The translations under genes were made by a program, and so were the position numbers. Under the pieces are notes generated by a model. That model did no database searches. It saw only the letters and a program-made list of their open reading frames with translations, and was not told the DNA's origin. DNA of 64,000 nt from an uncultured Solirubrobacterales bacterium (GTDB lineage Bacteria > Actinomycetota > Thermoleophilia > Solirubrobacterales > 70-9), in assembly GCA_963817945.1 (NCBI GenBank), contig CAWFQH010000005.1, forward strand, positions 117,257-181,256. The letters are read 5' to 3'. Of this stretch, positions 36,184-57,800 are shown in pieces (position 1 is the first letter of the stretch; the number at the start of each line of letters is the position of its first letter).

Positions 36184-36260
36184 ATCTACACTGGTACGCG
36201 AGCCTACTTCTCGCCTGCGGGCGCAGAATGTGAGGGCGGTCACATAGGCGTGGCTCCGTC

Positions 36261-36302
36261 GCCTAGAAGCCAAGCGCGAACTTGGCGTCCTCGGACATCA
36301 TC
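36261..36302. repeat. att copy A (duplicate of the sufT 3' end)
   Basis: gcctagaagccaagcgcgaacttggcgtcctcggacatcatc is identical to 40207-40248 and has one mismatch to 49200-49241. Confidence 0.85.
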
Positions 36303-36631
36303 ACAAGCAGCGTAGTAGGCGATCTTCCTGCAAGTCGCCAGTTTTACCCAGCGTGGGAATGCGGGCGGGGATGGCGGCCTGCGGAATCCATTTCGAATAG
36401 CCGTAGTGCTTCGGGTGGCGCTAGCGCAGTAATCGCCGCTCCCTGCGAGAAGCCGCTCTCCCGCCGCCAACGCGTGAGTCGCATCATGAATCAGGGTCGG
36501 GCTCGGAATTTTCCTGCTCGCCGGAAACCCGTCCTGCCCAGCCCCCTCCCGACAGCTTTCCTAAGGAGTCGTCAAACTAACATATATGTGGTGGTTGAAC
36601 TGTCCGAGTCGCGGGAGGCTGCCATGCCCCC

Positions 36632-39933: not shown

Positions 39934-40200
39934 TCACCGGCCGATGCTGAGTCCCCGATCGATGCTGCGCGCCCTCGATGCGAACTGCCCGATGCCCAGG
40001 ATGCGCTGCGCTTCCTGCAACCGCTGCCGAGCTAGCTGTTGGCGCAGGCTTGTCCCGTCTCTGCACCTCGTGGCCGAGCGCTTTCTTCGGGTCACGATTC
40101 TGTTCCGCGGGCGAAAGGCCTCGATGTCGGCGACCGTGCGGTCCCATGCCTTCCCCTTTGCCGGGTCGCTTGGCCTCTCCCCAGCCTCTGTGAGCCCGCA
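39934..40200 (-). pseudogene. 3' fragment of a TrwC-type relaxase gene
   Basis: ...GERPSDPAKGKAWDRTVADIEAFR...LQEAQRILGIGQFASRARSIDRGLSIGR* parallels the last ~85 codons of the intact relaxase. The nucleotide repeat 39813-40184 matches 42711-43088. Confidence 0.75.
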
Positions 40201-40250
40201 ATCCGTGCCTAGAAGCCAAGCGCGAACTTGGCGTCCTCGGACATCATCTC
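40195..40250. repeat. att copy B (junction between the two elements)
   Basis: cccgcaatccgtgcctagaagccaagcgcgaacttggcgtcctcggacatcatctc; 54 of 56 nt identical to 49188-49243. Confidence 0.85.
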
Positions 40251-40300: not shown

Positions 40301-40320
40301 TGGGGACAGCGGTGGGGACG
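40301..40320. repeat. TGGGGACAG-type direct repeats (candidate integrase arm sites), left arm of the intact element
   Basis: tggggacagcggtggggacg; 19 of 20 nt match to 49129-49148. Confidence 0.45.
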
Positions 40321-40321
40321 C

Positions 40322-40888: not shown

Positions 40889-40917
40889 CGGGCGAGCGTA
40901 ACCCCCTCAGGTCAAGG

Positions 40918-41012
40918 CAGCGGTTTCTCGGAGGCCGAGGCAGGACGGGGGTGCCCTGACCTTGCGGCACCCCCTCCTCCCTGCGAGAGCCCCGGCCTCC
41001 GAGAAACCGCTG
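40918..41012. repeat. nested long inverted repeat (20-bp perfect outer arms, 9-bp inner stem)
   Basis: cagcggtttctcggaggccg ... cggcctccgagaaaccgctg, with inner gggggtgcc / ggcaccccc. Confidence 0.6.
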
Positions 41013-41333: not shown

Positions 41334-41686
41334 CAAGCCCGTGCCTCCCGGAGGTGATCCAGCAAGCTCTTGAGAGCGTCGTGGCTGGCGGCCACCTCTG
41401 CGTAGTTGCCCTCCCGGTCATGCGTTTCGGCGGCGGCTTCGATGCAGGTTCGCGCCGTCTCGTCAGGGAGGACGATGTGTCCCGTCGCTAGGCCGACCAG
41501 CATCCGCTCGTATGCTTGGGCCTCTTGGCGCACTGCCTCGGGACTCTCCAGTCGGTCGGGGTCCTCCAGGTCTTGCCGAATCCCCAATAGCCAACTCCGA
41601 AGCCGGTCACGCAGGATCGAAATGTGATCGAGGGGAAGGTCGAGAGACACCAACCGCTCGCCGCCCGTAGGGTTCTCTTCAGCCAT
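41333..41686 (-). CDS. hypothetical protein
   Basis: 117 aa helical acidic protein, translationally coupled to the next gene. Confidence 0.45.
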   Translation of the reverse strand: MAEENPTGGERLVSLDLPLDHISILRDRLRSWLLGIRQDLEDPDRLESPEAVRQEAQAYERMLVGLATGHIVLPDETARTCIEAAAETHDREGNYAEVAASHDALKSLLDHLREARA

Positions 41687-41771
41687 GAGGAGCCACGTCT
41701 CCTTGTGGTCAGGCGGCCCGTCGTGTTACCCCACGGCGGGTCGCCGCTTATGTCTTGGCAGTCAGCCTAGC

Positions 41772-41801
41772 ATGTTTGTGGGGTACATACCCCACAAACA
41801 T
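41772..41801. promoter_or_regulatory. 30-bp perfect palindrome (operator or nick-region candidate)
   Basis: atgtttgtggggta-ca-taccccacaaacat, in an AT-richer gap between the small HTH gene and the 41686 operon. Confidence 0.5.
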
Positions 41802-42022
41802 CAATCACCGCGGATGATTTCCGCGACGTGGCTGAAGTTGAGACCAGCCTCATCGGCGATTTCGCGGACGGTTAGACCGTCCTTCTGCGCCTGCGCGAAT
41901 CGCTCGCGGCGGGCGGCGCGTGCCTTCGCGCGTTCGCGTTGAACACGTTCTTGGGCGCGTTCAAACTCAGCCTGAGCGTGGCGCACGTCGGTTCGCGCCT
42001 TCTGCTTCGGGTCGCTCGGCAT
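41801..42022 (-). CDS. small helical protein with C-terminal HTH
   Basis: 73 aa; the Arg/Glu/Ala helix is followed by DGLTVREIADEAGLNFSHVAEIIRGD. Confidence 0.5.
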   Translation of the reverse strand: MPSDPKQKARTDVRHAQAEFERAQERVQRERAKARAARRERFAQAQKDGLTVREIADEAGLNFSHVAEIIRGD

Positions 42023-42063
42023 CTACGCAGACTATTCGCCGAGCCCAGGGGTACGTTTCGTCG

Positions 42064-42357
42064 ATGACCGATCCGTTCATCCGCCCGCTCTCTGACGACG
42101 CGCGCATTCTGATCGAGTTCGAGGGCCGCCCACTGGAGCGCTACGCGATCATGCTCCAGCTACGGATCGAGGATTACTGGCAGACGATTCGCCTCTTCGA
42201 CAATGCCCACGGAGACCACGATATGCACCGCTACACTGGAAGCGAGAAGCAGCCTGCGGAGCGGTTTGCCGAGGGGGCTGTCAACGAGATCGCACCTCAA
42301 GCAATCGATTTTCTGATCGACCACTGGAAAGCAATCGCGGACTCATGGAGAGGCTAG
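42064..42357 (+). CDS. hypothetical protein
   Basis: ATG 42064 within ORF 41920..42357. ...RLFDNAHGDHDMHRY... His-rich motif. No secure family assignment. Confidence 0.45.
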   Translation: MTDPFIRPLSDDARILIEFEGRPLERYAIMLQLRIEDYWQTIRLFDNAHGDHDMHRYTGSEKQPAERFAEGAVNEIAPQAIDFLIDHWKAIADSWRG

Positions 42358-42695
42358 AGCGCAGCAAGTTCACCCGAGCTGGCGAAATCGCCAACGAGCG
42401 ATTGGTCGAGGCTGTGCTCGAACCTGATCGCTATCCCGAGGGAACCACCTTCATCGCTGCCGATCAAGAGAGCTTCGGCGCGATACTCGCCGAGGCCGTG
42501 GCAGAGCATCGGCCGGTCGCAATCGTCTACTCCGATGGCCGCGAGATCGTTGCCGCGCCCCGAGGTGGCGCACTCGCCTTCTTCGAGCATCTGCTGACCC
42601 GCCGACGCGAGCCCATGCACGGCACTCCGGCCGTGCCGCTGCCCGCCGACTATCAGGTCGAGATCAGGGACCCCGAGGCGCTTGCCGCCGCCTGA
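42345..42695 (+). CDS. hypothetical protein
   Basis: 116 aa. Overlaps the preceding ORF by 13 nt, so the two may form a two-gene module. Confidence 0.45.
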   Translation: MERLERSKFTRAGEIANERLVEAVLEPDRYPEGTTFIAADQESFGAILAEAVAEHRPVAIVYSDGREIVAAPRGGALAFFEHLLTRRREPMHGTPAVPLPADYQVEIRDPEALAAA

Positions 42696-42832
42696 TCGCT
42701 GCGCTTCCTCGCCCGACCTACCCGCAGAACTAGCATCGCGAGGGCGGCAGTCAAGGGCGCTTTTGCGCCCGACCCCCGCAGGGGGTTGACGGCCGCCCGA
42801 GCGGTGCTTCAATCGCCGGTAGGTCGGGGGCC

Positions 42833-45800
42833 TTACCGGCCGATGCTGAGTCCCCTATCGATGCTGCGCCCTCTCGACGCGAACTGCCCGATGCCCAGGA
42901 TGCGCTGTGCTTCCCGCAACCGAAGCTGGGTTAGCTGCTGGCGCTGGCGCTCGGCGCTCCTCTGCACCTCGCGGCCGAGCGCTTTCTTCGGGTCGCTGAT
43001 TCCATTCCGAAGGCGAAAGCCCTCAATGTCGCCGACCGCGCGATCCCATGCCTTCCCTTTCGCTGGATCGCTTGGCCTCTCCCCCAGCTCGTTCTTGATG
43101 TAGGCAGGTGGCGAGACGCGGGCGGCCGTGGCCGCTAGCCGCTCTCGCTCAGAGAGGACCTGATCGGCAACGGCGAACTCTCGCCGGGCGGCGTCACCAG
43201 GGGGCGGGATTTGGGCAAGCTCGGCCTGAAGGGGCTGAAGGTGGGCGTCGGCGCGCGCCTCCATCTCCTCGGCTCCTGCCAACTCCTGACGGCGAAGCTG
43301 CCGCAGGCGGAAGGGCATCGCCTCCGCCGCCTCTCGGCGCACCTGAGCGCGATCAAAGTGCTCGTGGACCCGTTCGATCTGATCCTTGAGCGCGGCATGG
43401 CGCTCCTCGCCGCCCCGCTCTCGATCTGCTGCCCTCTCAAGCTCCGTGTGCCTGGCGACCAGCTCCTCGGTCGGCAGGCCGGCGAACTGCGAGCGCAGCG
43501 CCGCGTCGTGGGCAGCGAGCTGCGCGCGGTCGCGCTCGGCGGCTTCGGCGATATGCGGGATGCCCTCCCGCAGGTGTGGAGATTCCGGTGCGATCTCCTC
43601 GCGGTGGGTCTGAATCTCGGGCGTGGCGTAGATGAACGTCTCCTCGCGGCTGCGCGAGGCGGCGACGTAAAGCTCCTGCTTGTCCATCGAGGGGTCGGCG
43701 GCGACGAAGGCTCGATCAACGGTCGTGCCCTGCGCTGAGTAGGTCGTCACCGCGTAGGCGTGTTCGAGCGCGGGAGCGTCGGAATGCGGGTTGGTCTGGG
43801 CGAGGTAGTCGGCTCCGACTTTGACCGCCTTGGCCTGGTCGATGCCTTCGAGGACGACACGGCGCTCGGCGGCGTCGACCTCGGCGATGCGCCAGCGCTC
43901 GCGGTTGAAGACCTCGGCCTCTCGGTCGTTGACGCGGGTGATGACGAGATCGCCGGCGGCGAAGCGGGCCTCCCCCACCTCGATCTCTTGCGTTCCGAGC
44001 GCATCGGACTGGCGTCGGACCTCCCGCGCGATCTCATTGAGCCGCCTGACCTCGGCGTTCTGTTTGGCGATCATCACGGCGTCCTCGCCTCGCTCGAAGG
44101 ACTCGTGCCAGTCACGGACCATCGCCACGCGGCGCTCCTCGGCGTTCGGGGCGACCGTGACGCGCTCCTGTGAGCGGTAGAGGCTCAGCGCGTCGCGGCC
44201 CTCGCCATCCCTGATCCGCTTCGCCGCATCGCGGTCGAGCTCGTGACGGTGGCGGATCACCTCGTCAAGGTGGATCGGGTCGGTGCGTTCGGCGAGCGCC
44301 CGGAACAGCCCGCCCGCCTCGATCTCGCCAAGCTGCTCGGGATCGCCGACGAGGACGAGCTTTGCTCCGGCCGCCTCGGCGTGGGAGACGAGCCGCGCCA
44401 GGGTGGCCGAGTCCACCATCCCGGCCTCGTCGATCAGGAGGACCGATTCGTGCGGCAAGCCCTCGCCGCTTTCGTGCTCGGCGCGGTCGAGCCGCAGGAG
44501 CAAGCTGGCGACCGTCGTAGCGGGCAGCCCGTCCGACTGCATGACCTGCGCCGCTCGCCAGGTCGGCGCTGCCGCGCGCAGCTCGATCCCGGCCTGCGCC
44601 CAGCCCTCGGCTGCGGCGACGATGGCGAAGGTCTTGCCGCTGCCCGCCTCGCCGATCACCACGGCGACTCCCTCGGGGCTCGTCAGGAGGCGACGGATCA
44701 TCTCGCGCTGGTCGTCCTTCAAGGTCGGGCGAGCGCCGATCACGCGCGCCGCGATCAGCTCCCCCGCTGGCGTCGGTCCCTGCGCTCGCATCCCCCCGGC
44801 GGCGGCCAGCGCCTCGCGCTCAAGCTCCCAGATGCGCCGGGTCGTATAGCGGGGGCCTTTGGCCGTCTCCGCGATCTGGATCACGGAACCGGAGGCGAGG
44901 AAGGCGTCGGCCAGCCGCTCGACCTCTGCGCCGGGTGCGCCCTGAGGCAGCGAGTCGGCGACGGCCTGGATTGCCTCGCGGCGGTCGAAGTGGGATGCCG
45001 ATGCCGTGACGGCACAGCCAAGCTGAACCTCCGAAACAGTCGGGGCCTCGGCGCTGCCGATCTTCAGCGCCGCCTCTCCGTCGAAGGTGCGCGCGATCGT
45101 CTCGCGGTCCAAGCCGATCTCCTCTGCCTTCGATCGCCACCGCGCCAGCAGCTCGCCGTGCCCGACGTCGCGCTCCTTCGGCTGTCGCGTCGTCAGCGCC
45201 GCAACCTGCATCGAGCGGGCCGAGGCGTCTGCGCCCGTCGCCTCGAGTATCTGTTGGCGGCGGGTCGAGAAGGCCCGTAGGTGCTCGTCGGCGAAGCCTG
45301 CGATCTCGGCGATGCCTTTGCGGGTCGGCTGCCACTCGACACCGAGACGGCGGGTCAGCTCGTGGCGAAGGTGCGCCTCGTAGATGTAGCTGGCGGTCTT
45401 GGCGTGGTCGTAGATCGCGGGGTGGTAGAGGCGCGTCCAGCGGCCGTCCGGTCCCTTCGTCGCGTTGGCGACGAGGACGTGGGTGTGGAGCTGCGGATCG
45501 CCCGCGCGGGAGGAGCGGTGGAGGTAGCCGGCCGCCAGGTAGCCGTTGCCGTGGACGAACTCCGAGCCGCCCGCTCCCCTGCGGGTCCAGCACGCCTCGC
45601 GCTGCATGTAGTCGAGCGCAGCTCCTACCGCTTCGCGGTGGGCGGCTTTGACCTCGACGGCGGCGGCGGGCCCGCCCAAGCCCCAGAGCAGAGAGACGGA
45701 CTTGGGAGCCGAGAAGGTGAGATCGAAGCCGGGGACCGATCCGCTCGACGGGACGCCGCGCATCCCGACCAGCGGCTCGCCGTCGACTGGGTTGCGGCCC

Positions 45801-45982
45801 GTGAGCATCGCTTCGAGCTGCGCCGCCTCGACCTCGCCGGAGAGGCCCAGGTCTTTGGCGGCGTCGCCGAGCCATTCCCCGGCGACCTCGCCCTCGCCGG
45901 AGTAGTAGTCCTCAGCGCCTTCGGCGACCTTTTCAAGGTAGTAGCGCTCCTGTCCTATGCCGAGCTTGCCGATTGAGAGCAT
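42833..45982 (-). CDS. MOBF-type relaxase (TrwC/TraI) fused to a RecD-like helicase
   Basis: N-terminal MLSIGKLG...YY, FDLTFSAPKSVS, GDPQLHTHVLVANATKG (His triad). Helicase Walker A VIGEAGSGKT, LLIDEAGMV, TTYSAQGTT. Confidence 0.9.
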   Translation of the reverse strand: MLSIGKLGIGQERYYLEKVAEGAEDYYSGEGEVAGEWLGDAAKDLGLSGEVEAAQLEAMLTGRNPVDGEPLVGMRGVPSSGSVPGFDLTFSAPKSVSLLWGLGGPAAAVEVKAAHREAVGAALDYMQREACWTRRGAGGSEFVHGNGYLAAGYLHRSSRAGDPQLHTHVLVANATKGPDGRWTRLYHPAIYDHAKTASYIYEAHLRHELTRRLGVEWQPTRKGIAEIAGFADEHLRAFSTRRQQILEATGADASARSMQVAALTTRQPKERDVGHGELLARWRSKAEEIGLDRETIARTFDGEAALKIGSAEAPTVSEVQLGCAVTASASHFDRREAIQAVADSLPQGAPGAEVERLADAFLASGSVIQIAETAKGPRYTTRRIWELEREALAAAGGMRAQGPTPAGELIAARVIGARPTLKDDQREMIRRLLTSPEGVAVVIGEAGSGKTFAIVAAAEGWAQAGIELRAAAPTWRAAQVMQSDGLPATTVASLLLRLDRAEHESGEGLPHESVLLIDEAGMVDSATLARLVSHAEAAGAKLVLVGDPEQLGEIEAGGLFRALAERTDPIHLDEVIRHRHELDRDAAKRIRDGEGRDALSLYRSQERVTVAPNAEERRVAMVRDWHESFERGEDAVMIAKQNAEVRRLNEIAREVRRQSDALGTQEIEVGEARFAAGDLVITRVNDREAEVFNRERWRIAEVDAAERRVVLEGIDQAKAVKVGADYLAQTNPHSDAPALEHAYAVTTYSAQGTTVDRAFVAADPSMDKQELYVAASRSREETFIYATPEIQTHREEIAPESPHLREGIPHIAEAAERDRAQLAAHDAALRSQFAGLPTEELVARHTELERAADRERGGEERHAALKDQIERVHEHFDRAQVRREAAEAMPFRLRQLRRQELAGAEEMEARADAHLQPLQAELAQIPPPGDAARREFAVADQVLSERERLAATAARVSPPAYIKNELGERPSDPAKGKAWDRAVGDIEGFRLRNGISDPKKALGREVQRSAERQRQQLTQLRLREAQRILGIGQFASRGRSIDRGLSIGR

Positions 45983-46105
45983 CCACGGGGTATGTCCGTG
46001 GAGAGGACCGGCGCGAATCCCCGGGGGCGCTCGCGAAAGTTTTCGGACGTATCCGATGCAAGCGGCCGATGCAAACGACTTCCTCGGTGGACAACAGGAC
46101 TAGAA

Positions 46106-46393
46106 ATGCCAAACCGCCCTTCACCCCCTCGCCTCGGCCTGACCATCGAGGAGGCTGCCGAAGCCGTCGGCATGAGCGAGTCGTCGTTCAAGCGCCACGT
46201 CCAGCCGGAGCTTCGGATCGTCCGTCGCGGAAGCCTGCGGATCATCCCCATCCCGGAGATCGAGAGATGGCTCGAAAGCAGCGCCACGCTAGCTGGAGCG
46301 GTTAGAGCAGCGTCTAGAATGACGCAGACAAAAAAGCGCCCCCGCGCCGTAGGAGCGGCCGGGGGCATGGCCCATAGAGAGGAAGCTCCATGA
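46106..46393 (+). CDS. xis: excisionase/MerR-superfamily HTH DNA-binding protein
   Basis: ATG 46106. LTIEEAAEAVGMSESSFKRHV...LRIIPIPEIERWL. Its stop overlaps the integrase ATG. Confidence 0.7.
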   Translation: MPNRPSPPRLGLTIEEAAEAVGMSESSFKRHVQPELRIVRRGSLRIIPIPEIERWLESSATLAGAVRAASRMTQTKKRPRAVGAAGGMAHREEAP

Positions 46394-47532
46394 GCAGCAA
46401 GAAGCGTAGTCCGGCCCTTCAAGGGATCGAAGTCCGAACGGACGCGAAGGGTCAGAAACGATACAGGGGGACCGTCAGCGACAAGATCGCGGGCAGGCAT
46501 CTGCGGGGACCGTGGACCGGATCGCTGGCCGAGGCACGGTCCTGGCGCGTGGACGCGCAAGCGCGCCTACAGGCAGGGACCCTCTCGGCCGCTACCGGGC
46601 CGACCGTCACCGAGGCAGCAGAGCAGTTCATCGCGGATATGCAGTCGGACACGCTCCGGCAGAAGGGCGGGCACCTCTACAAGCCGAGCACCGTCCAGGG
46701 ATACGAGCGCGATCTGACCAAGTACGCCCTGCCAGAGCTGGGGTCGAAGCGGATTAGCCGTCTACAGCGCCCCGAGCTTCAACGCTGGGTCGATGGGCTG
46801 ACGACGCCGGAGAGATCGCCGTCCACGATCAGGAACATCGTCGCCGCGCTGCGGGCCTTGATCGGCTTCGCGGAACTGCGCGGGTGGGTCCATGTGAATC
46901 CCTGCAACGGACTTCGACTTCCGGCAGGGCAGAAGGCGCGGGACCGAATTGCCTCCCCTCCCGAAGCGGAAAAGCTGATCGCAGCGATGCGTCCCAAGGA
47001 CCGGGCGACGCTTGGCCTCGCCGTCTACGCCGGTCTACGACTCGGCGAGCTGCTTGCGCTCGACGTTGCCGCCGTCGATCCTGATGGCGGCTGGATTCAC
47101 GTTCACCGGAGCTGGGATCGCGGGACCAAGCAGTTCATCCCAACGAAGTCCCGCAAGCCGCGCAGCGTGCCGATCATCGACAAGCTCGCCGTCCTCCTAA
47201 CCGACCATTTCGTCCTGCTCGATCACCCGAGCAACGGATTGCTCTTTCCAAGTTCAAACAACCCCGAGTGGCCGACCGACCCCGGCATCCTGCGCCGCCG
47301 CATACACGCGCGCTGGAAGAAGGCGGGCCTGAAACCGCTCGGCTTCCACGAGGGCCGTCACACCTACGCCAGCATCGGGATCGCCGCCGGGCTGAACCCC
47401 AAGACCCTGAGCACCTACCTCGGCCACGCGACGATCACGATCACCCTCGACCGCTACGGCCACCTGATGCCGGGCAGCGAGGTTGAAGCGCGGGCAATGT
47501 TGGATCGCTACCTCGATAGCTCAGTCTCCTAG
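46390..47532 (+). CDS. int: tyrosine-type site-specific integrase
   Basis: ...GLRLGELLAL...HEGRHTYAS...LGHATITITLDRYGHLM (R..H-x-x-R..Y catalytic residues). Confidence 0.92.
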   Translation: MSSKKRSPALQGIEVRTDAKGQKRYRGTVSDKIAGRHLRGPWTGSLAEARSWRVDAQARLQAGTLSAATGPTVTEAAEQFIADMQSDTLRQKGGHLYKPSTVQGYERDLTKYALPELGSKRISRLQRPELQRWVDGLTTPERSPSTIRNIVAALRALIGFAELRGWVHVNPCNGLRLPAGQKARDRIASPPEAEKLIAAMRPKDRATLGLAVYAGLRLGELLALDVAAVDPDGGWIHVHRSWDRGTKQFIPTKSRKPRSVPIIDKLAVLLTDHFVLLDHPSNGLLFPSSNNPEWPTDPGILRRRIHARWKKAGLKPLGFHEGRHTYASIGIAAGLNPKTLSTYLGHATITITLDRYGHLMPGSEVEARAMLDRYLDSSVS

Positions 47533-47661
47533 TTCAACCCTCTGCGTATGGCCTACGCGGGCTTGAAACTGCCCTCCAAGGGAGACAGCCTGCGCGTCTA
47601 GATATCGCCGGAGCGCTGCAACGATAGGATCGGCCGTCGGGCACCGAGGCACGACGAAAAC

Positions 47662-47937
47662 ATGGTCTACATCTATAAAGTCAAGATGACTTCCGGTGGC
47701 AGCAATCACAGCCACATCGCCGCCGTAAAATGGAAAAACCCGGACAGCGGAAAATCCGGTGAATCAACTCAACAAACGATGGTTGAGTGGATTTCCAAGA
47801 AAAATGGGTCCGCTTACGTCTGTGGCGACCATGCCCACATAGCGAAAGTGGGCGTAGTTAAAGGCAATCCGCCATATATCCGCACCTTCGCAGACGGATC
47901 GTGGAGCGACAACCTCCTCAATCTACCTCGATATTGA
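47662..47937 (+). CDS. DUF3892-like small protein
   Basis: 91 aa; ...HSHIAAVKW...PPYIRTFADGSWSDNLLNLPRY matches my recollection of the DUF3892 C-terminal signature. Local GC is about 50% against about 70% background. Confidence 0.65.
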   Translation: MVYIYKVKMTSGGSNHSHIAAVKWKNPDSGKSGESTQQTMVEWISKKNGSAYVCGDHAHIAKVGVVKGNPPYIRTFADGSWSDNLLNLPRY

Positions 47938-47961
47938 GACCTTCTGCGCGGTCGGTCATCC

Positions 47962-48846
47962 TTGACCGCGAATTCGATGCGCTTCCTACGCCGAAGAAGC
48001 CGATCATCAAAGAAGGAGCAAGCGCCTCCGCTACTGGCCTACCCCTATTACGTCGACAGCCGCGGTCTCCGTGGTCTCGCGGACTCCCTCGCGATCGAGC
48101 TGCCAACGATTCGCGAAAAGAAGAAGTCCGGTCGAGTGGGTGCTCAAACTCATGGCGTCGGGGCTGAGCGGGGCTGGGAAGAGGGACGAGAGCTAGAAGG
48201 ACATATCCATCTGAATGTGCTTGCTGAGCAGCTAAGGCGGAGCGCGGCGGCACGGGAGATCATTGATGTCCTGAGCTTGATCCCCCAGGTTCACGACCGT
48301 GGCATTCTCGACGCTGCAATAAGCCACATGCAAAACATGCCTCCCGATGACCTATCCGATGATCTATCTGAGCGCCTGCAATCGGCCTACGAGACCGCAC
48401 GGGTCCGCGAGATGGCCTTAGCCAAGCAACTGGAGCTGCAACAGGTCGCCGCACAAAACCAGCTCGTGATTCTCAGAGGGACGTTTGAGGCCGTCACGGA
48501 GGGAGACTGTTCCTGCGTCAGGCTGACCCACCTTGAGCCTTCGGAGGTCGTAGCCGAGAGCGTTGATATTCCAGAGGCCGAGGCCGTAGCCGGGGTCGCA
48601 GAGATGCCGATGCCCGAAGACGTTGGGATCGAGGCGGTACTCCCCGCAGATGATGCGTTCACCGCAGACGGCCGCGAGCGCCTAAATCGGGGTGCCCCGT
48701 TTTATGGTCGGCTGATCGGCCACAGCGCTAGCTTTGACTCAAACAGCGGCATCCTGACCTGCTCGGCATATGCCGTATGGGGTATGCCGCGACCAGCCGA
48801 GCTTCTCGCCCACCCTCGCCATTACGATTTTCTGGAGGGAAAATGA
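47962..48846 (+). CDS. hypothetical protein (cargo gene 2; alternative start ATG 47977)
   Basis: 294 aa, reduced GC. No family recognised. Confidence 0.55.
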   Translation: MTANSMRFLRRRSRSSKKEQAPPLLAYPYYVDSRGLRGLADSLAIELPTIREKKKSGRVGAQTHGVGAERGWEEGRELEGHIHLNVLAEQLRRSAAAREIIDVLSLIPQVHDRGILDAAISHMQNMPPDDLSDDLSERLQSAYETARVREMALAKQLELQQVAAQNQLVILRGTFEAVTEGDCSCVRLTHLEPSEVVAESVDIPEAEAVAGVAEMPMPEDVGIEAVLPADDAFTADGRERLNRGAPFYGRLIGHSASFDSNSGILTCSAYAVWGMPRPAELLAHPRHYDFLEGK

Positions 48847-49100
48847 ACTTCGACGGCGCTGTCATTCGAGAGCAGGGGGTCACGTTCGCCATAGCCGTTG
48901 TCAGGCGCGGTGTCCTCGCGGCTCCCGTCGAACGCGACAAAACTCTGAGCTACTTTCAGGGCTTCTTCGGCGGGATACCCGTGGTCCTGATGGAGCAAGA
49001 CCACAACGGCGTTCCGACTTGGTACGGGCGTCCCGACTTGACGCGCTTTCTGCAAAACGTGCCGGTCGACACTATTCCCTGGAAGCGCTACTCAGCGTAG
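48843..49100 (+). CDS. hypothetical protein (cargo gene 3)
   Basis: ATG 48843 overlaps the previous stop (ATGA). 85 aa: MNFDGAVIREQGVTFAIAVV... No family recognised. Confidence 0.5.
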   Translation: MNFDGAVIREQGVTFAIAVVRRGVLAAPVERDKTLSYFQGFFGGIPVVLMEQDHNGVPTWYGRPDLTRFLQNVPVDTIPWKRYSA

Positions 49101-49128
49101 CGTTAACGCCCATTGGCTAGGTTCCTCG

Positions 49129-49160
49129 TGGGGACAGCCGTGGGGACGGGATGGGGACAG
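49129..49160. repeat. three TGGGGAC(A/G)G direct repeats (candidate integrase arm sites), right arm of the intact element
   Basis: tggggacagccgtggggacgggatggggacag, 40-70 nt from att copy C. Confidence 0.45.
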
Positions 49161-49187
49161 AACTGACCCCCGCTGACCCCTTATGAC

Positions 49188-49243
49188 CCCGCAATCCCTG
49201 CCTAGAAGCCCAGCGCGAACTTGGCGTCCTCGGACATCATCTC
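49188..49243. repeat. att copy C (functional 3' end of sufT)
   Basis: cccgcaatccctgcctagaagcccagcgcgaacttggcgtcctcggacatcatctc. Contains the sufT stop and its last 13 codons. Confidence 0.85.
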
Positions 49244-49519
49244 CGGGGACCAGGGGGGGTCGAAGACCATCTTCGGGTGGACGGCGCTGACGCCGGGGAG
49301 GTCGCCGACGAACTCCTTCATCTGCTCGGAGACCTGGGGGCCGATCGGACAGGCGGGAGTGGTCAGGGTGAAGGTGACGTAGACGTCCTCGTTCTCGATC
49401 TCGACGTCGTAGACGAGGCCGAGCGAGACGAAGTCGAGCCCCAGCTCGGGGTCGATCACCTCCTCGAGGGCCTCCATGACGTCGTCCTCGGTCAGCACCT
49501 CGGTTTGGTTCTCAGGCAT
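49202..49519 (-). CDS. sufT: DUF59/SufT-like Fe-S assembly protein
   Basis: ATG 49519 within ORF 49202..49879. VMEALEEVIDPELGLDFVSLGLVY...TLTTPACPIGPQV. Confidence 0.85.
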   Translation of the reverse strand: MPENQTEVLTEDDVMEALEEVIDPELGLDFVSLGLVYDVEIENEDVYVTFTLTTPACPIGPQVSEQMKEFVGDLPGVSAVHPKMVFDPPWSPEMMSEDAKFALGF

Positions 49520-50072
49520 CGGCCAATGGTAGCCGGGCCGGGCCCTGCGGCGAGAGGGGATCCGCTGGAGGCCCGTCGGCCGGATGCAGCTCCAGCTGCC
49601 ACCAGCCGACGTCTCGCCAAGCGCCGGCCTTCCAGCCGATCCTGCGGTAGATGCCGACCGGGACGAAACCGAGGTCCTCGTGCAGGGCGACGCTGGCCTC
49701 GTTGGGCAAGGTGATGCCGGCGCAGGCGACGTGGAAGCCCTGCTGCCGCAGGCGCAGCAGGAGCTCGGTGTAGAGAGCCCGGCCGTAGCCCCTGCCGCGC
49801 CTGTCCTCCGCCACGTAGACCGAGACGTCGATAGCCCAGCGGTAGGCCGGACGCGAGCGGTGCGGGTAGGCGTAGGCATAGGCGACGACCTTACGGTCGA
49901 GCTCAGCGACTACCCAGAGGTGAGTGGCCATCGTCTGAGCGATGCGTTCCGCGAACTGGGTTGCGGTCGGCGCCGCCTCCTCGAAGGAGGTCGCTCCTTC
50001 CAACACGTGGGGGGCGTAGATCGCAGCGCAGGCAGCCCCGTCGGCCTCCGGGTCGGCGGTGCGGATGGTCAT
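49512..50072 (-). CDS. GNAT family N-acetyltransferase (phosphinothricin acetyltransferase-like)
   Basis: ATG 50072. ...YVAEDRRGRGYGRALYTELL...NEASVALHEDLGFVPVG. Overlaps the sufT start by 8 nt. Confidence 0.8.
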   Translation of the reverse strand: MTIRTADPEADGAACAAIYAPHVLEGATSFEEAAPTATQFAERIAQTMATHLWVVAELDRKVVAYAYAYPHRSRPAYRWAIDVSVYVAEDRRGRGYGRALYTELLLRLRQQGFHVACAGITLPNEASVALHEDLGFVPVGIYRRIGWKAGAWRDVGWWQLELHPADGPPADPLSPQGPARLPLADA

Positions 50073-51250: not shown

Positions 51251-51697
51251 GGAGCCGGCGCGGTCCCAGACGTAGAGCTCGACCGCCTCGACCGCGAGCT
51301 CCATCAGGCGCGGCGAGGAGAGCATGTCGAGGACCAGCTCGAGCGCGTCCTCCTCGGTGAGGCCAGCGTCGACCGCCTCCTCGCCGCGGAAGCCGGCGGC
51401 CAGCTTCAGGGCCTCGCGGCGGTTGTCGCCGAGCGAGCCGAAGGCGCCCATGAGGAAGTCGCGGTTGGGGAGCGGCTGGCCCAGCTCAAGCGAGCCGTGC
51501 CAGGCGGCGAGCATCGAGAGGTCGTGCTCGTCCAGCTCCGAGAGCGCTTTTGCGTAGTGGACTTCGAGCTCCTGGTCGGGGATCTCGTCGACCCAGGCGC
51601 GAACCGCCTCGCCGAGTAGCTGGCGACGGGCCTCGCGACCGATCGAGTCGGCGATGGCACGGATGGCGTCGGCTGGATCTACGAAGCAGAGGGACAT
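51242..51697 (-). CDS. hypothetical protein
   Basis: ATG 51697 within ORF 51242..52525. The upstream extension is Arg/Pro-rich shadow of the plus-strand gene. Confidence 0.5.
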   Translation of the reverse strand: MSLCFVDPADAIRAIADSIGREARRQLLGEAVRAWVDEIPDQELEVHYAKALSELDEHDLSMLAAWHGSLELGQPLPNRDFLMGAFGSLGDNRREALKLAAGFRGEEAVDAGLTEEDALELVLDMLSSPRLMELAVEAVELYVWDRAGSEN

Positions 51698-51828
51698 TCG
51701 CTGTGGCCAATCTAGAGAGGGCTCAAGACGGCAAAGCCGGGCGCGGATTTGCCGCAATTGCGGCCTTCCCGGCGCTGCCTCGGTCGCCGGGCGCGCGCCG
51801 GAGGCCGACCTATGCTGGAACGTCCGCG

Positions 51829-54800
51829 ATGCCGCTGAAGCTGATCCATGGACCGCCCAACTCGGGCCGCGCCGGCCTGATTCGGAAGCGGTTCGATGCG
51901 GCGTTGGACCGCGACCCCGTCCTCGTCGTCCCCACCCTGGACGACGTCTACGCGTTCGAGCGCGAGCTGTGCGAGCGCGGCGCCATCCTGGGAGGGACGG
52001 CGACGACCTTCCGCGGGCTCTTCCGGGCAGTGGCAGTCGCCGGGGGGGCGCCGCCTGCGGGCGAGCTGACACCAGCCCAGCGGCTGCGGGCGATCTCGAT
52101 CGCGATCGAGGAGCGACGAGAGATGCTCGGGCCACTGCGGCGCTCTGCCGGCCGGCCCGGATTCGCACTCGCCTTTGAGCGCCTGCTGGATGAGCTGCAG
52201 GCAGCGGGAATCGAGCCGGCCGCAGTCGAGGGCGGCGCCGGAACGCTCGAGGGCTCCGCCTACCTCGGCGACCTCGTCTCCCTCTTTGCCGGCTACGTCG
52301 AGATCCGCGATCGCCTCGGCCGCACCGATTCGCACGGCGTCGCCCGGCAGGCGATCGCGGTCCTGTACGAAGGGGGCACGCCGTGGCGCCGGCCGGTCTT
52401 CCTCTACGGGCTCGACGACCTGACGGCGAACCAGTTCGAGCTGATCGAGGCGCTGGCTCGTTCGGTTGAGGTGACCCTCGCCCTTCCATACGAGGAGGGC
52501 AGTGGCGCTCTGGCCGCACGCGCATCCCTGCTGGAGCGCCTGCGGGCGCTCGGAGCTGCCGAGGAGACGCGCACCGCGCCCGATCCGGCCAACACCCCCA
52601 ATCCGCTGCTCTTCCACCTTGAGCGCAGCTTCGGCACCCCCGACCCCGGCCGCCGTGAGCCAGGCCCCGGGCTGACGATCCTGCGCTCTGCCGGCGAGCG
52701 CGGCGAAGCCGAGTCGATCGGGGCCGAGGTCGCGAAGCTGGTCGCGGGCGGGGCCGATCCGGGCGAGGTCGCGATCGTCGTACGCGATCCCGAGCGACGC
52801 GGGCCCCTTCTCGCCTCGGTGCTCGAGGGCTACGGCGTAGCGGTGGCGCTGGAGGCAGAGCTGCCGGTCGCCGCCACCTCGGTGGGCGGCACCCTGCTGG
52901 CGCTGCTGGCGGCGACGCGACCGCAAGGCACGACCGGCGATCTGCTCCGCTTCATGCGCGGGCCCTCGGCCCTACCGCGGGGACAGGTCGACTGGTTCGA
53001 GCGCGCCCTGCGCAGGCGGCGTCTGCGAACCGCGGCCGCCGGCCTCGAGCTGTGGCGGGACCGCCACGAGTCGGTTCCCGGCGACATCGCACGGGTTGAG
53101 GAGGCGGCTGAGCGCGGGCCTGCCCAGCTAGCAGCCACGCTCGGGCGGCTCGCGGTGACGATGGCCGGGCGCCCTCTGCGAGGCGAGGGCGACGGCCCGT
53201 CGCCGGGTCCACAGGACTGGACCGAGCTGCGCGCGGCGGCGGCGATCTCGACCGCGCTCTCAGAGCTGGCCGAGCCCGCTGCGCTGGCGCCCGCCGCCGA
53301 GCAGCTGGCCGCCACGGTCGAAGCGATTCGCTTTCGCGCTTGGAGCGGCCCTGTCGAGGGACGGGTACGGATTGCCAGCCCCTACGCGCTGCGCGCCGCC
53401 CGCTTCGACCACGTCTTCGTCGCCTCGCTGCAGGAGGGCGAGTTCCCGCGCGCCGAACGGGGCGGCGACCCCTTCCTCTCGGACTCGCAACGGGAATCGC
53501 TCGGCCTCGACCGGCGGCGCGAGGGCGAGCTCGAGGAGCGCTACCTCTTCCACGCCTGCCTGGCCCTCCCCCGCCAGAGCCTCTTCCTCTCCTACCGCGA
53601 CAGCGACGAAAATGGGGTCGCCGAGCAACGCTCGCCGTTGTTGGGTGAAATCCGGCGCCTGCTCGATCCGCCCCCTACCCCCGATGAGCCCGACACGGTC
53701 GAAGCCGCGATCGTCCGCGGGCGCAATCTGGCGCAGGTCGTCCATTGCATCGCCGAGGCGCCTTCCGAAGGGGAGCTGGCACGAGCCGTTGCCGCCCACG
53801 GCGCAGACGCAGATGCCGCCGCCTTGCTCGCCGCGGCAGCGGTCGGCGAACCGGCAGCGGGGCGGGTCGCCGCCCGGGTCGAGGCGGGACGAGCGGCGGA
53901 GGCGGCCGCAAGGGCGCCGGGCCCACTGGCGAACCCGGCCGTGATCGAGGCCCTCGCCGCGGTCCCGGCCCATGGTGGCACCACCCTCGAGGGGTTCGAC
54001 CTCTGCTCCTACCGCTGGTTCGTATCGCACGAGCTGCGCCCGCAGCCGCTGGATCCGGCTCCCGACCCACTCCTGCAGGGCGGGCTCATGCACGCCGTCC
54101 TCCACCGCCTCTACACCGATCATCCCGGCGGCGACGCCCTCCCCCGCCCCGCCTCGCTGCCCGCTTGGAACGAGCGCGGCCGCGCCCTTGTCGCCGAGAC
54201 GGCGGCCGCCTTCGAGCTGGGCGATAGCCCGGCCGAGCGGGCGATCGTCCGCCGGGTCGAAGGCTTGCTGGCCCGCTTTCTCGCTGAGGAGTCGGGCCGC
54301 GAGGCGCGCTTTCAACCGTGGCTCCTGGAGGCCGGATTCGGCGGCGAAGAGGGGAATCAGCAGCCGGCCCTGGAGATCGACGGATGGCGCCTGCACGGGG
54401 CGATCGACCGGGTCGACCGCGACGAGCGCGGCCGGGCGCTGGTCCTCGACTACAAGCTTGCGGGCGCGGTGACGCCGCGCGGCAAGCTGGAGGAGCAGGC
54501 GAAGCTGCAGCTGCAGCTCTACCTGATCGCCGTCGCCGAGCTCTGGGGCGCGGAGCCGGCCGGCGCCCTCTACCACCCGTTGCGCGGCACCTCGGCACGA
54601 CGGCCGCGGGGCCTTGTGCTCGACGAGGTCGCTGAGGGTCTCGCCGGCTTTGGGCTCGCCCGTACCGACCTGGTCGATCACGAGGGGTTCGAGGAGCTGC
54701 TGGCCGACGCCCGCCGACGGGCCGGCGAGATCGTCGCCCGCATGCGCCGGGGGGATATCCGGCGCGACCCCGGTCCGCGCCGCGGGCTGCGCGGTCACGG

Positions 54801-54891
54801 CATCTGCCCCCCCTTCTGCGACTTCGCGCCGATCTGCCGCCGCGACCGGGCGCCGGTCGAGCCGCGCGAGGAGGAGGCGGAGGAGCGATGA
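51829..54891 (+). CDS. AddB-like helicase-nuclease subunit (PD-(D/E)XK nuclease with C-terminal Cys cluster)
   Basis: ATG 51829. N-terminal GPPNSGRAG P-loop. C-terminal ...LVLDYK...CPPFCDFAPIC. Confidence 0.8.
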   Translation: MPLKLIHGPPNSGRAGLIRKRFDAALDRDPVLVVPTLDDVYAFERELCERGAILGGTATTFRGLFRAVAVAGGAPPAGELTPAQRLRAISIAIEERREMLGPLRRSAGRPGFALAFERLLDELQAAGIEPAAVEGGAGTLEGSAYLGDLVSLFAGYVEIRDRLGRTDSHGVARQAIAVLYEGGTPWRRPVFLYGLDDLTANQFELIEALARSVEVTLALPYEEGSGALAARASLLERLRALGAAEETRTAPDPANTPNPLLFHLERSFGTPDPGRREPGPGLTILRSAGERGEAESIGAEVAKLVAGGADPGEVAIVVRDPERRGPLLASVLEGYGVAVALEAELPVAATSVGGTLLALLAATRPQGTTGDLLRFMRGPSALPRGQVDWFERALRRRRLRTAAAGLELWRDRHESVPGDIARVEEAAERGPAQLAATLGRLAVTMAGRPLRGEGDGPSPGPQDWTELRAAAAISTALSELAEPAALAPAAEQLAATVEAIRFRAWSGPVEGRVRIASPYALRAARFDHVFVASLQEGEFPRAERGGDPFLSDSQRESLGLDRRREGELEERYLFHACLALPRQSLFLSYRDSDENGVAEQRSPLLGEIRRLLDPPPTPDEPDTVEAAIVRGRNLAQVVHCIAEAPSEGELARAVAAHGADADAAALLAAAAVGEPAAGRVAARVEAGRAAEAAARAPGPLANPAVIEALAAVPAHGGTTLEGFDLCSYRWFVSHELRPQPLDPAPDPLLQGGLMHAVLHRLYTDHPGGDALPRPASLPAWNERGRALVAETAAAFELGDSPAERAIVRRVEGLLARFLAEESGREARFQPWLLEAGFGGEEGNQQPALEIDGWRLHGAIDRVDRDERGRALVLDYKLAGAVTPRGKLEEQAKLQLQLYLIAVAELWGAEPAGALYHPLRGTSARRPRGLVLDEVAEGLAGFGLARTDLVDHEGFEELLADARRRAGEIVARMRRGDIRRDPGPRRGLRGHGICPPFCDFAPICRRDRAPVEPREEEAEER

Positions 54892-57800
54892 GCCAGCGGG
54901 TGCCCACTCCCGAACAGGCGGTCGCGATCTCTGCCCGCGGGCGCGACGTGCTGGTCGAGGCCGGCGCCGGCAGCGGCAAGACCGGCGTCATGGTCGACCG
55001 CTACTGCCGTCTGGTCTGCGAGGAGGGCATCTCGCCCGACGCCGTCCTCGCCTTCACCTTCACCGACAAGGCCGCCGCCGAGCTGCGGCAGCGGATCCGC
55101 GCGGAGATCGAGTGGCGTGCCGAGGCCGGCTCCGAGCGCGCCCGCGAGTTGCTGGCCGGAATCGGCGCCACCTGGGTGACGACGATCCACGGCTTCTGCA
55201 ACCGGCTGCTGGGCGGGCACCCGGTGGCGGCCGGACTCGACCCTCGCTTCCGCGTGCTCGACGCCGCTGAGACGGAGCGACTCGCGCGCGACGCCTTCGA
55301 GGAGGCGCTCGAGGACTTCCTGGTGGAGGAAAACGACGGCGACCACGAGCGGACGATCGCCGCCTTCGACGTCGCCGGCCTGAGGGCGATGGTGATCGGC
55401 GCCCACGCCGAGCTGCGCAGCCGCGGAATCGCCGAGCCACGATTGCCCGGGCCACCGGCGACGGACGTCGGCGCGGTCCTGCGTCGGGCCGCCGACGCGG
55501 CGGTTACGACGCTGGAGGAGCTGAAGCCGACCAACCCCAACCGCGAGCTGGTGGAGCACGCCCTCGCTGTGTTGGGCGACGGAGCCGCCGAGCCGCCGAG
55601 CCTGGACGAGCTGACGGCGCTGCGCAGCGATAGCTCCGCCCATTCGATGAGCGCGTACTGCGAGGCAATGGAAGCGGCGGTCGCGGCGGTCGCCGAGGCG
55701 GGCGAGGGCGGCGAGGCGTACCGCCACGTCGCCGTCCTGCTGGAGCTGTTCGGCGAGCGCTTCGACGCCGCCAAGCGGCGCCGGGCCGCGATCGACTTCG
55801 AGGACCTGCAGATCCTCGCCGCGCGACTGCTCGAGCGCGGCGAGCCGGGAGCCGCTTACCGGAGCCGCTTCAGTCACCTCCTGGTCGACGAGTTCCAGGA
55901 CACCAACCGACTGCAGCTGCGGCTGATCGAGGCCCTGCGCGGCCCCGGCAGCGCGCTGGTCGTGGTCGGCGACGAGCTGCAATCGATCTACGGCTTCCGC
56001 CACGCCGACCTCGATGTCTTCCGTCGCCAGCGGGCCGCGATCGAAGCCAGTCCCGACGCCGAAGCGATGTCGCTGAGCGGCAACTTCCGTTCGCGGCCCG
56101 AGCTGATCGGTGCCGTCAACCTGCTCGGGCGAACGTTGCTGGGAGACGCGTTCAGACCGCTACACGTGGGTGCGCTGCCGGAGCACGAGGAGCCCGTAGG
56201 AGGCGGGCCCGCGGTGGAGCTACTCCTCAGCGGGCGCGACGGCTGGGACGCGGAGGAGATCGACCTGGAAGCAGCGACCGACGCGACGACCCCGCCCAGC
56301 CAGCTGGCCGAGGCGCGCTTCGTCGCCGCCCGCCTGCGGGCCCTTGCCGACGCCGGTGTCGACCGTGGCGGCATGGTCGTCCTGCTGCGCGCCTTCACCC
56401 ACCTCGACGCCTACGAGGACTCGCTCGAACGGGTGGGGCTGCGCCCCTACGTGGTGGGCGGCCGCGGCTACTGGTCCCAGCAGCAGGTAGCCGACGTCTG
56501 CGCGCTGCTGGCGACGATCGCCAACCCGCTCGACGACCAGGCGCTGTTCGGGGCGCTCGCCTCGCCCGCCTGCGCGGTCGCGCCGGACACGCTCTGGCTG
56601 TTGCGCGCCGCCTGCGGGCGCGGCCGTCACATCTGGCCCGCGCTGGAGCGGCTGTCGGGGCGCGAGGGGGTCGAGCTCGACGACGACACCTGGCTCGACC
56701 GGATCCCGGCCCCCGAGCAGGGCCTGCTGCGCGGCTTCGCGACAACCGTCGAGGCGCTGCGCGAGCGGGCGCCTCGCCTACCCCTCGCCGAGCTGATCGA
56801 CGCGGCCGTCAGCGAGACGCGCTACGACCTGGCGGTGCTCAGCCGCGCCGCCGGCGAGGCTCGCTTTGCCAACGTCCGCAAGCTGATGCGCCTCGCCGCC
56901 GAGTTCGAGGCCAGCGAGAGGCGCGACCTGCGCGGCCTGCTCGACTTTCTCGCCGCCCGCGCCGACGGCGACGTCGACGCGCAGGCGGCGACCGCGGTGG
57001 AGGGGCACGACGGGGTGCGGATCATGACCGTCCACAGCGCCAAGGGCCTCGAGTTCGACGTCGTCGCCGTGCCGGGGCTCTCGCGGCGGCTGCTGGCCGG
57101 CTCGCGGGCGCCGTTGCTGAGCATCGGCAACGAGGCTGAGCCGCGGGTCGGGATGCAGCTGCGCCGCCTCGGTGCCCCCTCCGTCAACCTCTACAGCTAC
57201 ACGGAGCTGCGTGAGGAAGCGCAGCGGCGCGAAGCCGAGGAGGAGCTACGCCTCTTCCACGTCGCCGCCACGCGCGCCCGCGAGCGCCTGATCTTGAGCG
57301 GGGTGATCAAGCCGCAAGCCGGCTCGAGCAACGGCTCCGGCACGCCGGCGATCGAGCGCATCGTCGAGGGACTGGGGGTCGACCGCGAGCAGGACTCGAC
57401 GCTCTCCGTCCCCGCGCCCGATCCGCGCGAGGGGCTGGCAGCGACCTTCGAGCCCTCCCAGATCGGGGTCAGCGTAAGCCTTGCCTCCTCTGAGCGGGCG
57501 GCAGAGCTGACCGCTCGCAGGCGCGAGGACGGCGTGGTGCGAGAGCCCGGCAAGGGCTCGGCGCCGCTGCTTCACCGACGCCGAGCGACGGCGCCGAACC
57601 GACCCCTCTCCTACACGGCCCTGGCCGGCTACGAGGCCTGCGGCTACCGCTTTCAGATGGAACACCTGCTCGGCCTCCCCAGCTCAGTTCGACGTTTGTC
57701 AAACATGCTGCGACAAACGTCGAACTCGGCAGCGGCAGAACCGGATGGCGTGGGACAGGCGGAGGGGGCCGCGCGGGGGGCCGCCGTCCACTCGCTGTTG

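Follow-up and report, generated by a model that had tools for sequence, protein, structure and literature searches.

We analyzed a 64,000-nucleotide stretch of DNA (the window) from an uncultured Solirubrobacterales bacterium (GenBank assembly GCA_963817945.1, contig CAWFQH010000005.1, positions 117,257 to 181,256 of the forward strand). In the window, a small predicted mobile element carries three genes, which we call g1, g2, and g3, between its tyrosine integrase and its right attachment site (attR). An earlier note, written from the sequence alone, had described them as three same-strand open reading frames (ORFs) at the integrase-proximal end of the element and had proposed that they form an undescribed accessory or defence module. 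Their arrangement and their position are as described there (Table 1).

Table 1. Coordinates of the three genes, the mobile element that carries them, and its attachment sites (aa, amino acids; nt, nucleotides; bp, base pairs; pI, isoelectric point; HTH, helix-turn-helix).
Feature	Coordinates	Strand	Basis or remark
Three co-oriented ORFs (g1, g2, g3)	47662-49100	+	Between tyrosine integrase and attR
g1, DUF3892 protein, 91 aa, pI 9.5	47662..47937	+	Pfam PF13031, phrog_8224
g2, rare, unnamed family, 289 aa, acidic	47977..48846	+	Identical gene call P0001
g3, phrog_23950 member, 85 aa	48843..49100	+	Full-length PHROG match
Overlap (ATGA) of the g2 stop and g3 start codons; GGAGGG lies a few bases 5' of it	48843..48846	+	Read in sequence
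Spacer between integrase and g1, 129 bp	47533..47661	+	No sigma-70-like promoter or intrinsic terminator predicted
Tyrosine integrase	46390..47532	+	PF00589, E = 3.7e-19, and SAM-like N-terminal domains
Small HTH protein, excisionase-like	45992..46393	+	HTH_17, E = 4.5e-4, under the gathering score
TrwC-type relaxase-helicase, 1049 aa	42833..45982	-	PF08751, E = 6.6e-84; AAA_30, E = 1.9e-54
attR, 60-nt direct repeat	49184..49243		Family D3 of direct repeats
FeS_assembly_P (DUF59/SufT-like) target gene	49202-49879	-	PF01883, E = 3.1e-22
attL of the intact element, 95% identical to attR	40191..40250		Repeat family D3
Third, older att copy, 80%	36245..36304		Repeat family D3; marks decayed tandem element

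The ORF of g2 can be read from a TTG at 47962, which gives the 294 aa reported at first, but the ATG at 47977 is the most likely start because an identical 289-aa protein has been called in public data (P0001) and because all of the g2 homologues, when we compared their N-termini, start at an equivalent M-R-(F/W/L). The ATGA at which g2 stops and g3 starts is real, and we read it as a translational coupling of the two genes. We found no promoter, terminator, Rfam family, or inverted repeat above chance level between 47.3 and 49.4 kb. The lack of a predicted promoter or terminator between the integrase and g1 makes co-transcription with the integrase possible.

The trio is also distinct in composition. 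Its content of G+C (GC) is 49.6% in g1, 60.0% in g2, 60.1% in g3, and 58.2% for the module as a whole, against a mean of 68.4% for the window and 69–70% for the flanks. It is the lowest-GC 1.44-kb stretch in the window (only 0.08% of sliding windows are at or below it), so the low GC that had been noticed by eye is genuine, although the estimate of 50–57% was slightly low for g2 and g3. At four related loci (L008, L009, L010, and L012; we number the loci that we compared), the module is 4–7 points below its surroundings. That the module has a lower GC than its carrier in all loci tested marks it as exchangeable cargo. The window contains no additional or decayed copies of the trio.

Conserved co-occurrence of the three genes was one of the checks proposed for the module, and we found DUF3892, g2, and g3 intact and in the same order in eight independent contigs, including the window. 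The window (along with identical contigs from read assemblies, L001) has the trio in a TrwC/integrase element at the FeS_assembly_P gene. L008, which is the same as L011, comes from a metagenome-assembled genome (MAG) of the Solirubrobacteraceae, and there the trio is in another TrwC/integrase element. L012 is from another Solirubrobacteraceae MAG, and L138 is a metagenome contig. L146 has the order TrwC ... trio, HTH_17, integrase, with the HTH_17 gene at the position equivalent to that of the small HTH gene in the window. In L147, the trio abuts uvrC, and in L009, there are no mobility genes within 8 kb. In L010 (whose g3 was identified through an ORF listing), the trio adjoins KwaA, TacAT, and HicB, and a conjugation system with a type IV coupling protein (T4CP) and Replic_Relax is nearby. 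Besides these contigs, at least 13 more clusters of g2 match a cluster of g3 in the size of the longest contig, which indicates that the two genes are also co-located on short contigs.

The 4-nt overlap of g2 and g3 was retained in all six of the loci that we examined for it (the window, L008, L009, L010, L146, and L147). Across six trio loci, the nonsynonymous distance (dN) is 0.06–0.5 for all three genes, while the synonymous distance (dS) is above 1 or saturated. All three genes are under purifying selection, with dN/dS far below 1, which implies that they are real genes and not ORF artefacts of high-GC DNA. Pairwise distances are congruent for g1, g2, and g3 (the closest pairs are the window with L146 and L147 with L008), and together with the dN/dS values, this implies that the genes are inherited as one unit. 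We ruled out a cluster of non-functional ORFs by these data on selection and conservation.

The earlier note had asked whether homologs lie next to known defence genes, and some trios do: the neighbors are those already listed for L010, the ApeA gene of L008, and a homolog of it in L012. In L008, a gene for an ApeA-type HEPN protein (with ApeA_NTD1 and HEPN_Apea domains; 6024–7559) is co-oriented with DUF3892-g2-g3 and directly 5' of it. Immediately upstream of the trio in L012 is a homolog that falls in the same BLAST cluster, and these two loci are from different MAGs. In some genomes, there may be a functional link between the trio and ApeA.

The assignment of g1 to DUF3892 (DUF, domain of unknown function) was already apparent from its C-terminal tail (...YIRTFADGSWSDNLLNLPRY) and is borne out by Pfam: g1 matches PF13031 at 53.6 bits (the cut-off is 22.3), E = 3.3e-14, over positions 2–71 of the 71 in the profile. 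It also matches phrog_8224 (E = 2e-12). g1 is thus a typical stand-alone DUF3892 protein, and it is basic. DUF3892 has been described as a three-strand meander plus a helix, as in double-stranded RNA-binding domains (dsRBDs) and ribosome hibernation factors, and predicted antiviral systems contain fusions of it to Min-Wnt effectors (the Lipocone preprint, 10.1101/2025.01.14.632903). When we compared sequence profiles of g1, g2, and g3 to the Protein Data Bank (PDB), there were no matches; we disregarded an apparent match of g1 to 8pjs as spurious, as no stretch passes the threshold by itself.

Although g2 and g3 had both been thought to lack a family, this holds for g2 only. g3 matches phrog_23950 (E = 2.2e-21; residues 1–84 align to positions 1–81 of 82), which has no annotated function, and far from being an orphan, it belongs to a family that spans the prokaryotes. 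Homologs of g3 are 85–88 aa long and form at least 382 clusters. A pattern-limited scan found g3 in the genomes of 366 species of bacteria and archaea, including Actinomycetota, Proteobacteria, Bacteroidota, Firmicutes, Cyanobacteria, Planctomycetota, Chloroflexota, and Acidobacteriota, as well as the archaea Methanoregula, Methanoculleus, and Nitrosotalea. It is also in 43 contigs from IMG/VR and in 21 plasmids, including Ri plasmids and pRL8. Identity is around 50% across this whole range, from bacteria to archaea. Two of the trio's three families are far more widespread than was apparent from the sequence alone.

Structure prediction, which had been proposed as a check, gave a confident AlphaFold2 (AF2) model of g3 (predicted local distance difference test, or pLDDT, of 95.8) with the strand order b-b-a-b-b-a-b, but Foldseek gave no significant match in PDB or BFVD. 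The best matches are to folds like those of tRNA-splicing endonucleases and other endonucleases, at E = 5e-3 or weaker and a template-modeling (TM) score of ~0.45. We rejected the idea that g3 is a PD-(D/E)xK nuclease, as neither the strand order nor the conserved residues fit the canonical motif.

Among viruses, no complete phage genome in INPHARED contains g1, g2, or g3. In the prophage L102, the order is a Cro-like gene (on the opposite strand), g3, a CI-like repressor, an ImmA-like protease, and the integrase, which places g3 on the lysogeny side. A same-strand integrase is downstream of g3 in 9 of the 43 viral loci.

To describe the neighborhoods of g3, we used 80 species-level loci, with our own ORF calls and purpose-built profiles. 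A divergent M78 peptidase lies within 3 kb upstream of g3 in 33 of the 80 loci, usually with an XRE-type HTH protein, and in 8 further loci, an M78 peptidase is nearby in a different orientation. DUF2188 is on the same strand as g3 in 22 loci, typically 10–60 bp away. DUF3892 is directly adjacent on the same strand in 6 loci, and in 2 more, g2 lies between them; overall, DUF2188 or DUF3892 accompanies g3 in 28/80 loci. Five of the 80 loci have a YjzC-like gene. Other recurrent neighbors are an AAA ATPase with an S8 peptidase, SMODS, JAB-ThiF, DUF499, HsdM, and HigB (which adjoins g3 in L016 and L017), along with an SMC-like ATPase, helicases, a reverse transcriptase, and a WYL regulator.

The AAA ATPase and the S8 peptidase (subtilase) form a second recurrent pair. 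In two rhizobial plasmids (L144 and L145, which are pRi2659 and pRL8), an AAA protein with a C-terminal HTH and an S8 peptidase are divergent from DUF2188-g3. Seven Bacteroidota loci (L066, L071–L073, L075, L077, and L083) have an AAA + S8 pair before g3. The AAA protein of the rhizobial pairs is a homolog of the Bacteroidota one (E = 1.5e-67, with 37% identity), and the orientations of the pairs differ. By analogy with XRE + M78, this pair looks like a second switch that consists of a regulator and a protease.

Where DUF3892 and g3 occur together, the XRE + M78 pair and g2 seem to be mutually exclusive: a divergent XRE + M78 pair is present in all six loci that lack g2 and in none of the eight that have it, in a count from few, phylogenetically clustered loci. 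In the window, no ORF of the element (40.2–49.2 kb) is an M78 peptidase or an XRE HTH protein, and the M78 profile has no match between 41 and 56 kb. Nor did we find a divergent XRE + M78 pair at the seven other loci with g2.

Some elements with g3 have further small genes. In Phenylobacterium and relatives (L002–L007), M78-XRE is divergent from DUF2188-g3 and a 94-aa gene; this is one element found in many assemblies, and 251 blocks of the sequence collection list exactly this g3 protein. The cargo of this element includes a heavy-metal P-type ATPase and MerR, and once, it is beside genes for Tn7-like TnsA and a Mu-type transposase. The 94-aa gene belongs to a family of 92–94 aa that trails g3 in the Phenylobacterium elements (L002–L007 and L068, at about 6275–6561), and the representative that we tested had no match in Pfam. 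A relative in L141 (4359–4637, minus strand) is beside a membrane-type g2 and DUF3892. The Phenylobacterium and L141 proteins match each other pairwise at E = 7e-4 and recover each other in iterated profile searches. This family is another member of the guild of tiny proteins that travel together.

In contrast to g3, g2 is rare: one search found 36 proteins among 5.8e9, an exhaustive one with HMMER found 48 representatives among 1.84e9, and a word-indexed homology search with a wide alignment of g2 returned almost solely the close family. g2 itself has no match in Pfam, NCBIfam, PADLOC, the PHROGs, or PDB, 34 members of the family (including distant ones) have none in Pfam or PADLOC, and g2 is absent from the plasmids in PLSDB. 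The proteins have a conserved N-terminal motif, P-Y-Y-V-D..GLR.LA. The AF2 model of g2, from 24 homologs, is of low confidence (pLDDT of 58). In this model, the C-terminal half is rich in beta strands and has a topology (b1-b2-b3-a-b4-b5) like that of the oligonucleotide/oligosaccharide-binding (OB) fold. The Foldseek matches to OB folds are weak (E = 2e-3 to 1e-1, all above 1e-3), so we take these as a lead only. The OB-like domain is acidic (pI of 4.5).

The g2 family appears to have two forms. An alignment of the 13 close members (at least 50% identity, the type that is coupled to g3) shows no hydrophobic segment in any of them, whereas in at least 17 of 21 distant relatives (20–42% identity), a basic stretch comes after a strongly hydrophobic helix at the N-terminus. 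We conclude that the g2 of the window is a soluble offshoot of a membrane-anchored family. None of the distant relatives adjoins g3 in the contexts that we have, which are thin (mostly short contigs, as in L092–L094). In L141 and L142, a DUF3892 gene comes after a g2 of the membrane type that is partly decayed, and a remnant of TrwC is beside them; with the trio, this links the g2 family to DUF3892 in two architectures. The region around another distant relative (L091) is plasmid-like and includes both an ArdC-like gene and a methyltransferase that is an orphan. In L094 (1444–3645), the gene for a Ser/Thr protein kinase lies 4 nt past that of a membrane-anchored relative (P0172), and this kinase is a partner other than g3 or DUF3892.

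The carrier of the trio in the window is, from its gene content and its ends, an integrative mobilisable element of roughly 9 kb (40251–49183 between the repeats): it has a tyrosine integrase, a relaxase, and direct repeats at the 3' end of a gene. attR spans the final 42 nt of the FeS_assembly_P gene and 18 nt past its stop codon. A tRNA as the target is rejected, as the window contains no tRNA and the integration site is the 3' end of a protein-coding gene. The only other family match in the left half of the element is a DUF7718 protein (41920–42357, E = 8.7e-6), and the other ORFs at 40.3–42.8 kb have no family match.

To the left of the intact element, in tandem, there is a decayed second copy (36.3–40.2 kb; 36245–40250 with its repeats), so attL doubles as the right end of this older element. 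The decayed copy retains the 3' remnant of a relaxase (39815–40182), which is 85–90% identical to 42712–43084 (repeat families D2, D5, and D8), and it contains two genes for ArsR/HTH_20-type regulators. One of these (37262–38563) has an internal duplication of ~645 bp at 75–77% identity. Downstream of the element, at 51550–58490, two large adjacent ORFs on the plus strand (1113 and 1200 aa) resemble an AddAB/RecBCD-type helicase-nuclease in size and arrangement; they are outside of our finding.

The closest published parallel is with the operons that accompany CapH/CapP. Pairs of CapH/CapP-like HTH and M78 proteins face operons of DUF2188 or DUF3892 and hypothetical proteins (Lau et al. 2022, 10.1101/2022.04.27.489752, Fig. 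6F), and where that paper discusses these operons, it terms them uncharacterized and previously linked to defense, citing Burroughs & Aravind 2020. As operons of DUF3892 or DUF2188 next to CapH/CapP-like regulators are in print as putative defence systems, the trio is not wholly undescribed. In those operons and in the trio, a DUF3892 gene heads a short operon of very small proteins, and both are found in the context of mobile elements or defence islands and have predicted roles. The g3 family, as the usual partner of DUF2188 or DUF3892 in our survey, plausibly accounts for the hypothetical proteins of the CapH/CapP-associated operons. The window has the small-protein operon with DUF3892, but it differs in having no divergent XRE + M78 pair upstream or anywhere in the element, no DUF2188, and a g2 (289 aa), which is absent from all of the cassettes that are linked to XRE/M78.

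Similarly, DUF3892 has been proposed to be the RNA- or ribosome-sensing module that partners the effector in Min-Wnt (Lipocone) systems (preprint 10.1101/2025.01.14.632903). Unlike the Min-Wnt fusions, the DUF3892 of the window is a stand-alone protein of 91 aa, and g2 has no Lipocone or other Pfam signature. What was already known, then, is DUF3892 as a domain of unknown function, its predicted operons, and g3 as a PHROG of unknown function. What is new is g2 (which is in no library), the cassette that has g2 and lacks the regulator pair, and g3 as a common operon partner.

Defence genes are a familiar cargo near integrases: examples are rexAB beside cI in phage lambda, prophage-mediated defence in mycobacteriophages, and the hotspots of P2 and P4. 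The trio resembles such cargo in its atypical GC, in its slot between the integrase and the att site, in being exchangeable between related elements, and in an orientation that permits expression when integrated. It differs in that those cargoes have demonstrated phenotypes, while the proteins of the trio match no known or candidate defence family in PADLOC.

The trio probably has some part in the conflicts among bacteria, their phages, and mobile elements. We tentatively favor the idea that it is a conflict cassette: its payload would target RNA or the ribosome, and g2 would be a gate or sensor at the protein level. We rate this as quite possible, and we infer each of its biochemical steps and the defence phenotype itself. 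The trio would be a self-contained cassette of the defence or dormancy type, carried as integrase-proximal cargo by a small mobilisable TrwC/integrase element, and it would be a lineage-specific version of a widespread cassette of tiny proteins (those of the g3 family, DUF3892, and DUF2188), which in most phyla would be silenced by a divergent XRE + M78 pair of the CapH/CapP or ImmR/ImmA type. The payload would be the small proteins: the basic g1, with a predicted fold like that of dsRBDs and ribosome hibernation factors, and g3 as its universally conserved partner. Once an invader is sensed, the payload might arrest growth by acting on something conserved in the cell, for example RNA or the ribosome. 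In the Solirubrobacterales version, which lacks the repressor/protease switch, g2 would take the gating role: it would be produced at a set ratio to g3, owing to the ATGA coupling, and would either keep the payload inactive or serve as a sensor until the trigger comes. The exclusivity of g2 and XRE + M78, along with the coupling of g2 and g3, points to g2 as a stand-in for the transcriptional switch, and if so, the small proteins would be a payload that needs restraint.

This interpretation is suggested by the conservation of the unit, the neighborhoods of g3, the exclusivity, the second type of switch, the literature, and the defence neighbors across all of these contexts (ApeA HEPN, KwaA, TacAT, SMODS, JAB-ThiF, DUF499, HsdM, and a Shedu-domain gene). 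The position of g3 on the lysogeny side of a prophage and the independent link of g2 to DUF3892 also point this way. Finally, we found no homology to metabolic or structural families in Pfam, NCBIfam, PADLOC, PHROG, or PDB, which the earlier note had named as evidence that would argue otherwise.

Several observations weigh against it. The roles of all three families are predictions, and so far they come with no phenotype. The suggested check with PADLOC turned up nothing: no system model in PADLOC-DB v2 is hit by g1, g2, or g3 beyond chance, and the only match of g1 is a chance-level one to MTase_II (E = 0.052). The acidity of the OB-like domain and the poor model make nucleic-acid binding by g2 doubtful, g3 has no significant structural match, and the exclusivity comes from the small and clustered sample mentioned above. 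The XRE/M78 pairs near g3 might serve the mobile elements that host it, as their own immunity repressors, and not regulate a defence cassette. Also, the near-constant link to TrwC and an integrase (in the window, L008, and L146, with L141 as a variant) is as compatible with an element-centered role, that is, addiction, establishment, or regulation, as it is with host defence. So the proposal of an accessory or defence module stands as far as the conserved unit and its defence neighbors are concerned, but the same link fits a role for the element itself equally well.

If the role is addiction, then g2 and g3 would be a toxin/antidote complex that stabilizes the element, so that its loss kills or arrests the cell. 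As in a type II toxin-antitoxin (TA) system, g2 and g3 are a translationally coupled pair on a mobile element (their 4-nt overlap is conserved) and likely form a stoichiometric complex; the trio is at the edge of integrative elements; TA modules adjoin the trio of L010, and HigB is next to g3 in two other loci; and the distant relatives of g2 are membrane-anchored, like many partners of small toxins. However, neither g2 nor g3 matched a domain in Pfam, NCBIfam, or PDB, and with PADLOC and PHROG included, the trio has no recognized toxin, antitoxin, or DNA-binding domain. Unlike the small partner in type II TA systems, g3 is extraordinarily conserved (~50% identity between bacteria and archaea would be unusual for an antitoxin), and it mostly occurs without g2 or any obvious partner of the size of a toxin. 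A third gene, DUF3892, is always retained. We consider addiction to be improbable. A role in housekeeping, with the trio regulating excision, integration, or transfer (for instance, as a recombination directionality factor or a copy-control factor), strikes us as equally doubtful. The trio does adjoin the integrase in the window, with no terminator predicted between the integrase and g1, the order in L146 is g3, HTH_17, integrase, and the trio recurs in related TrwC elements. But the trio of L009 has no relaxase or integrase within 8 kb, that of L010 is beside a different conjugation system (T4CP + Replic_Relax), and genes of the g3 and DUF3892 families are also found with unrelated mobility genes, be it in plasmids, prophages, archaea, or chromosomal islands. 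The GC of the module, at 4–7 points under that of its elements in all loci tested, also fits exchangeable cargo instead.

The trio might also help the element to establish itself, as small early proteins that neutralize host immunity or reprogram translation on entry. We think this unlikely, if less so than the two roles above. g3, DUF2188, and DUF3892 are carried on integrative and conjugative elements, conjugative plasmids, and prophages, and genes of these families often come first on the side divergent from an ImmR/ImmA-like pair, where early induced operons are located. In their very small size and their lack of enzyme domains, the proteins resemble typical anti-defence proteins, and the distant relative of g2 in L091 is near the ArdC-like gene and the orphan methyltransferase. 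Yet in prophages, g3 is on the strand of the repressor and the integrase (lysogeny) and not in an early lytic operon, and in the window, the trio is co-oriented with the adjoining integrase and is not on the side of the relaxase or of a plausible origin of transfer (oriT). The absence of the trio's families from the INPHARED phages, and the occurrence of g3 next to chromosomal defence-type genes without hallmarks of mobile elements, also argue against an anti-defence role.

A bolder form of the conflict-cassette idea, which we think probably goes too far, is that g3, DUF3892, and DUF2188 are pan-prokaryotic tiny effectors that act behind protease-gated switches and arrest a conserved process such as translation. 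The switches would be XRE + M78, AAA-HTH + S8, or, at the protein level in Solirubrobacterales, g2. If this bolder form is true, it would be a new type of enzyme-free inducible immunity or dormancy that is common to bacteria, archaea, and the mobile elements of both.

If tests for a phenotype are negative, then these would be ordinary conserved hypothetical genes of mobile elements. If the trio does work as a conflict system, three orphan families would gain a function. One of them, g3, is conserved at ~50% identity between Thaumarchaeota and plasmids of Rhizobium, which implies that its target in the cell is universal. The apparent swap of a protease switch (XRE + M78 or AAA-HTH + S8) for g2 offers a concrete handle on how the cassette is gated. 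The trio also adds a recurrent type of cargo to the small TrwC/integrase elements of the poorly studied Solirubrobacterales.

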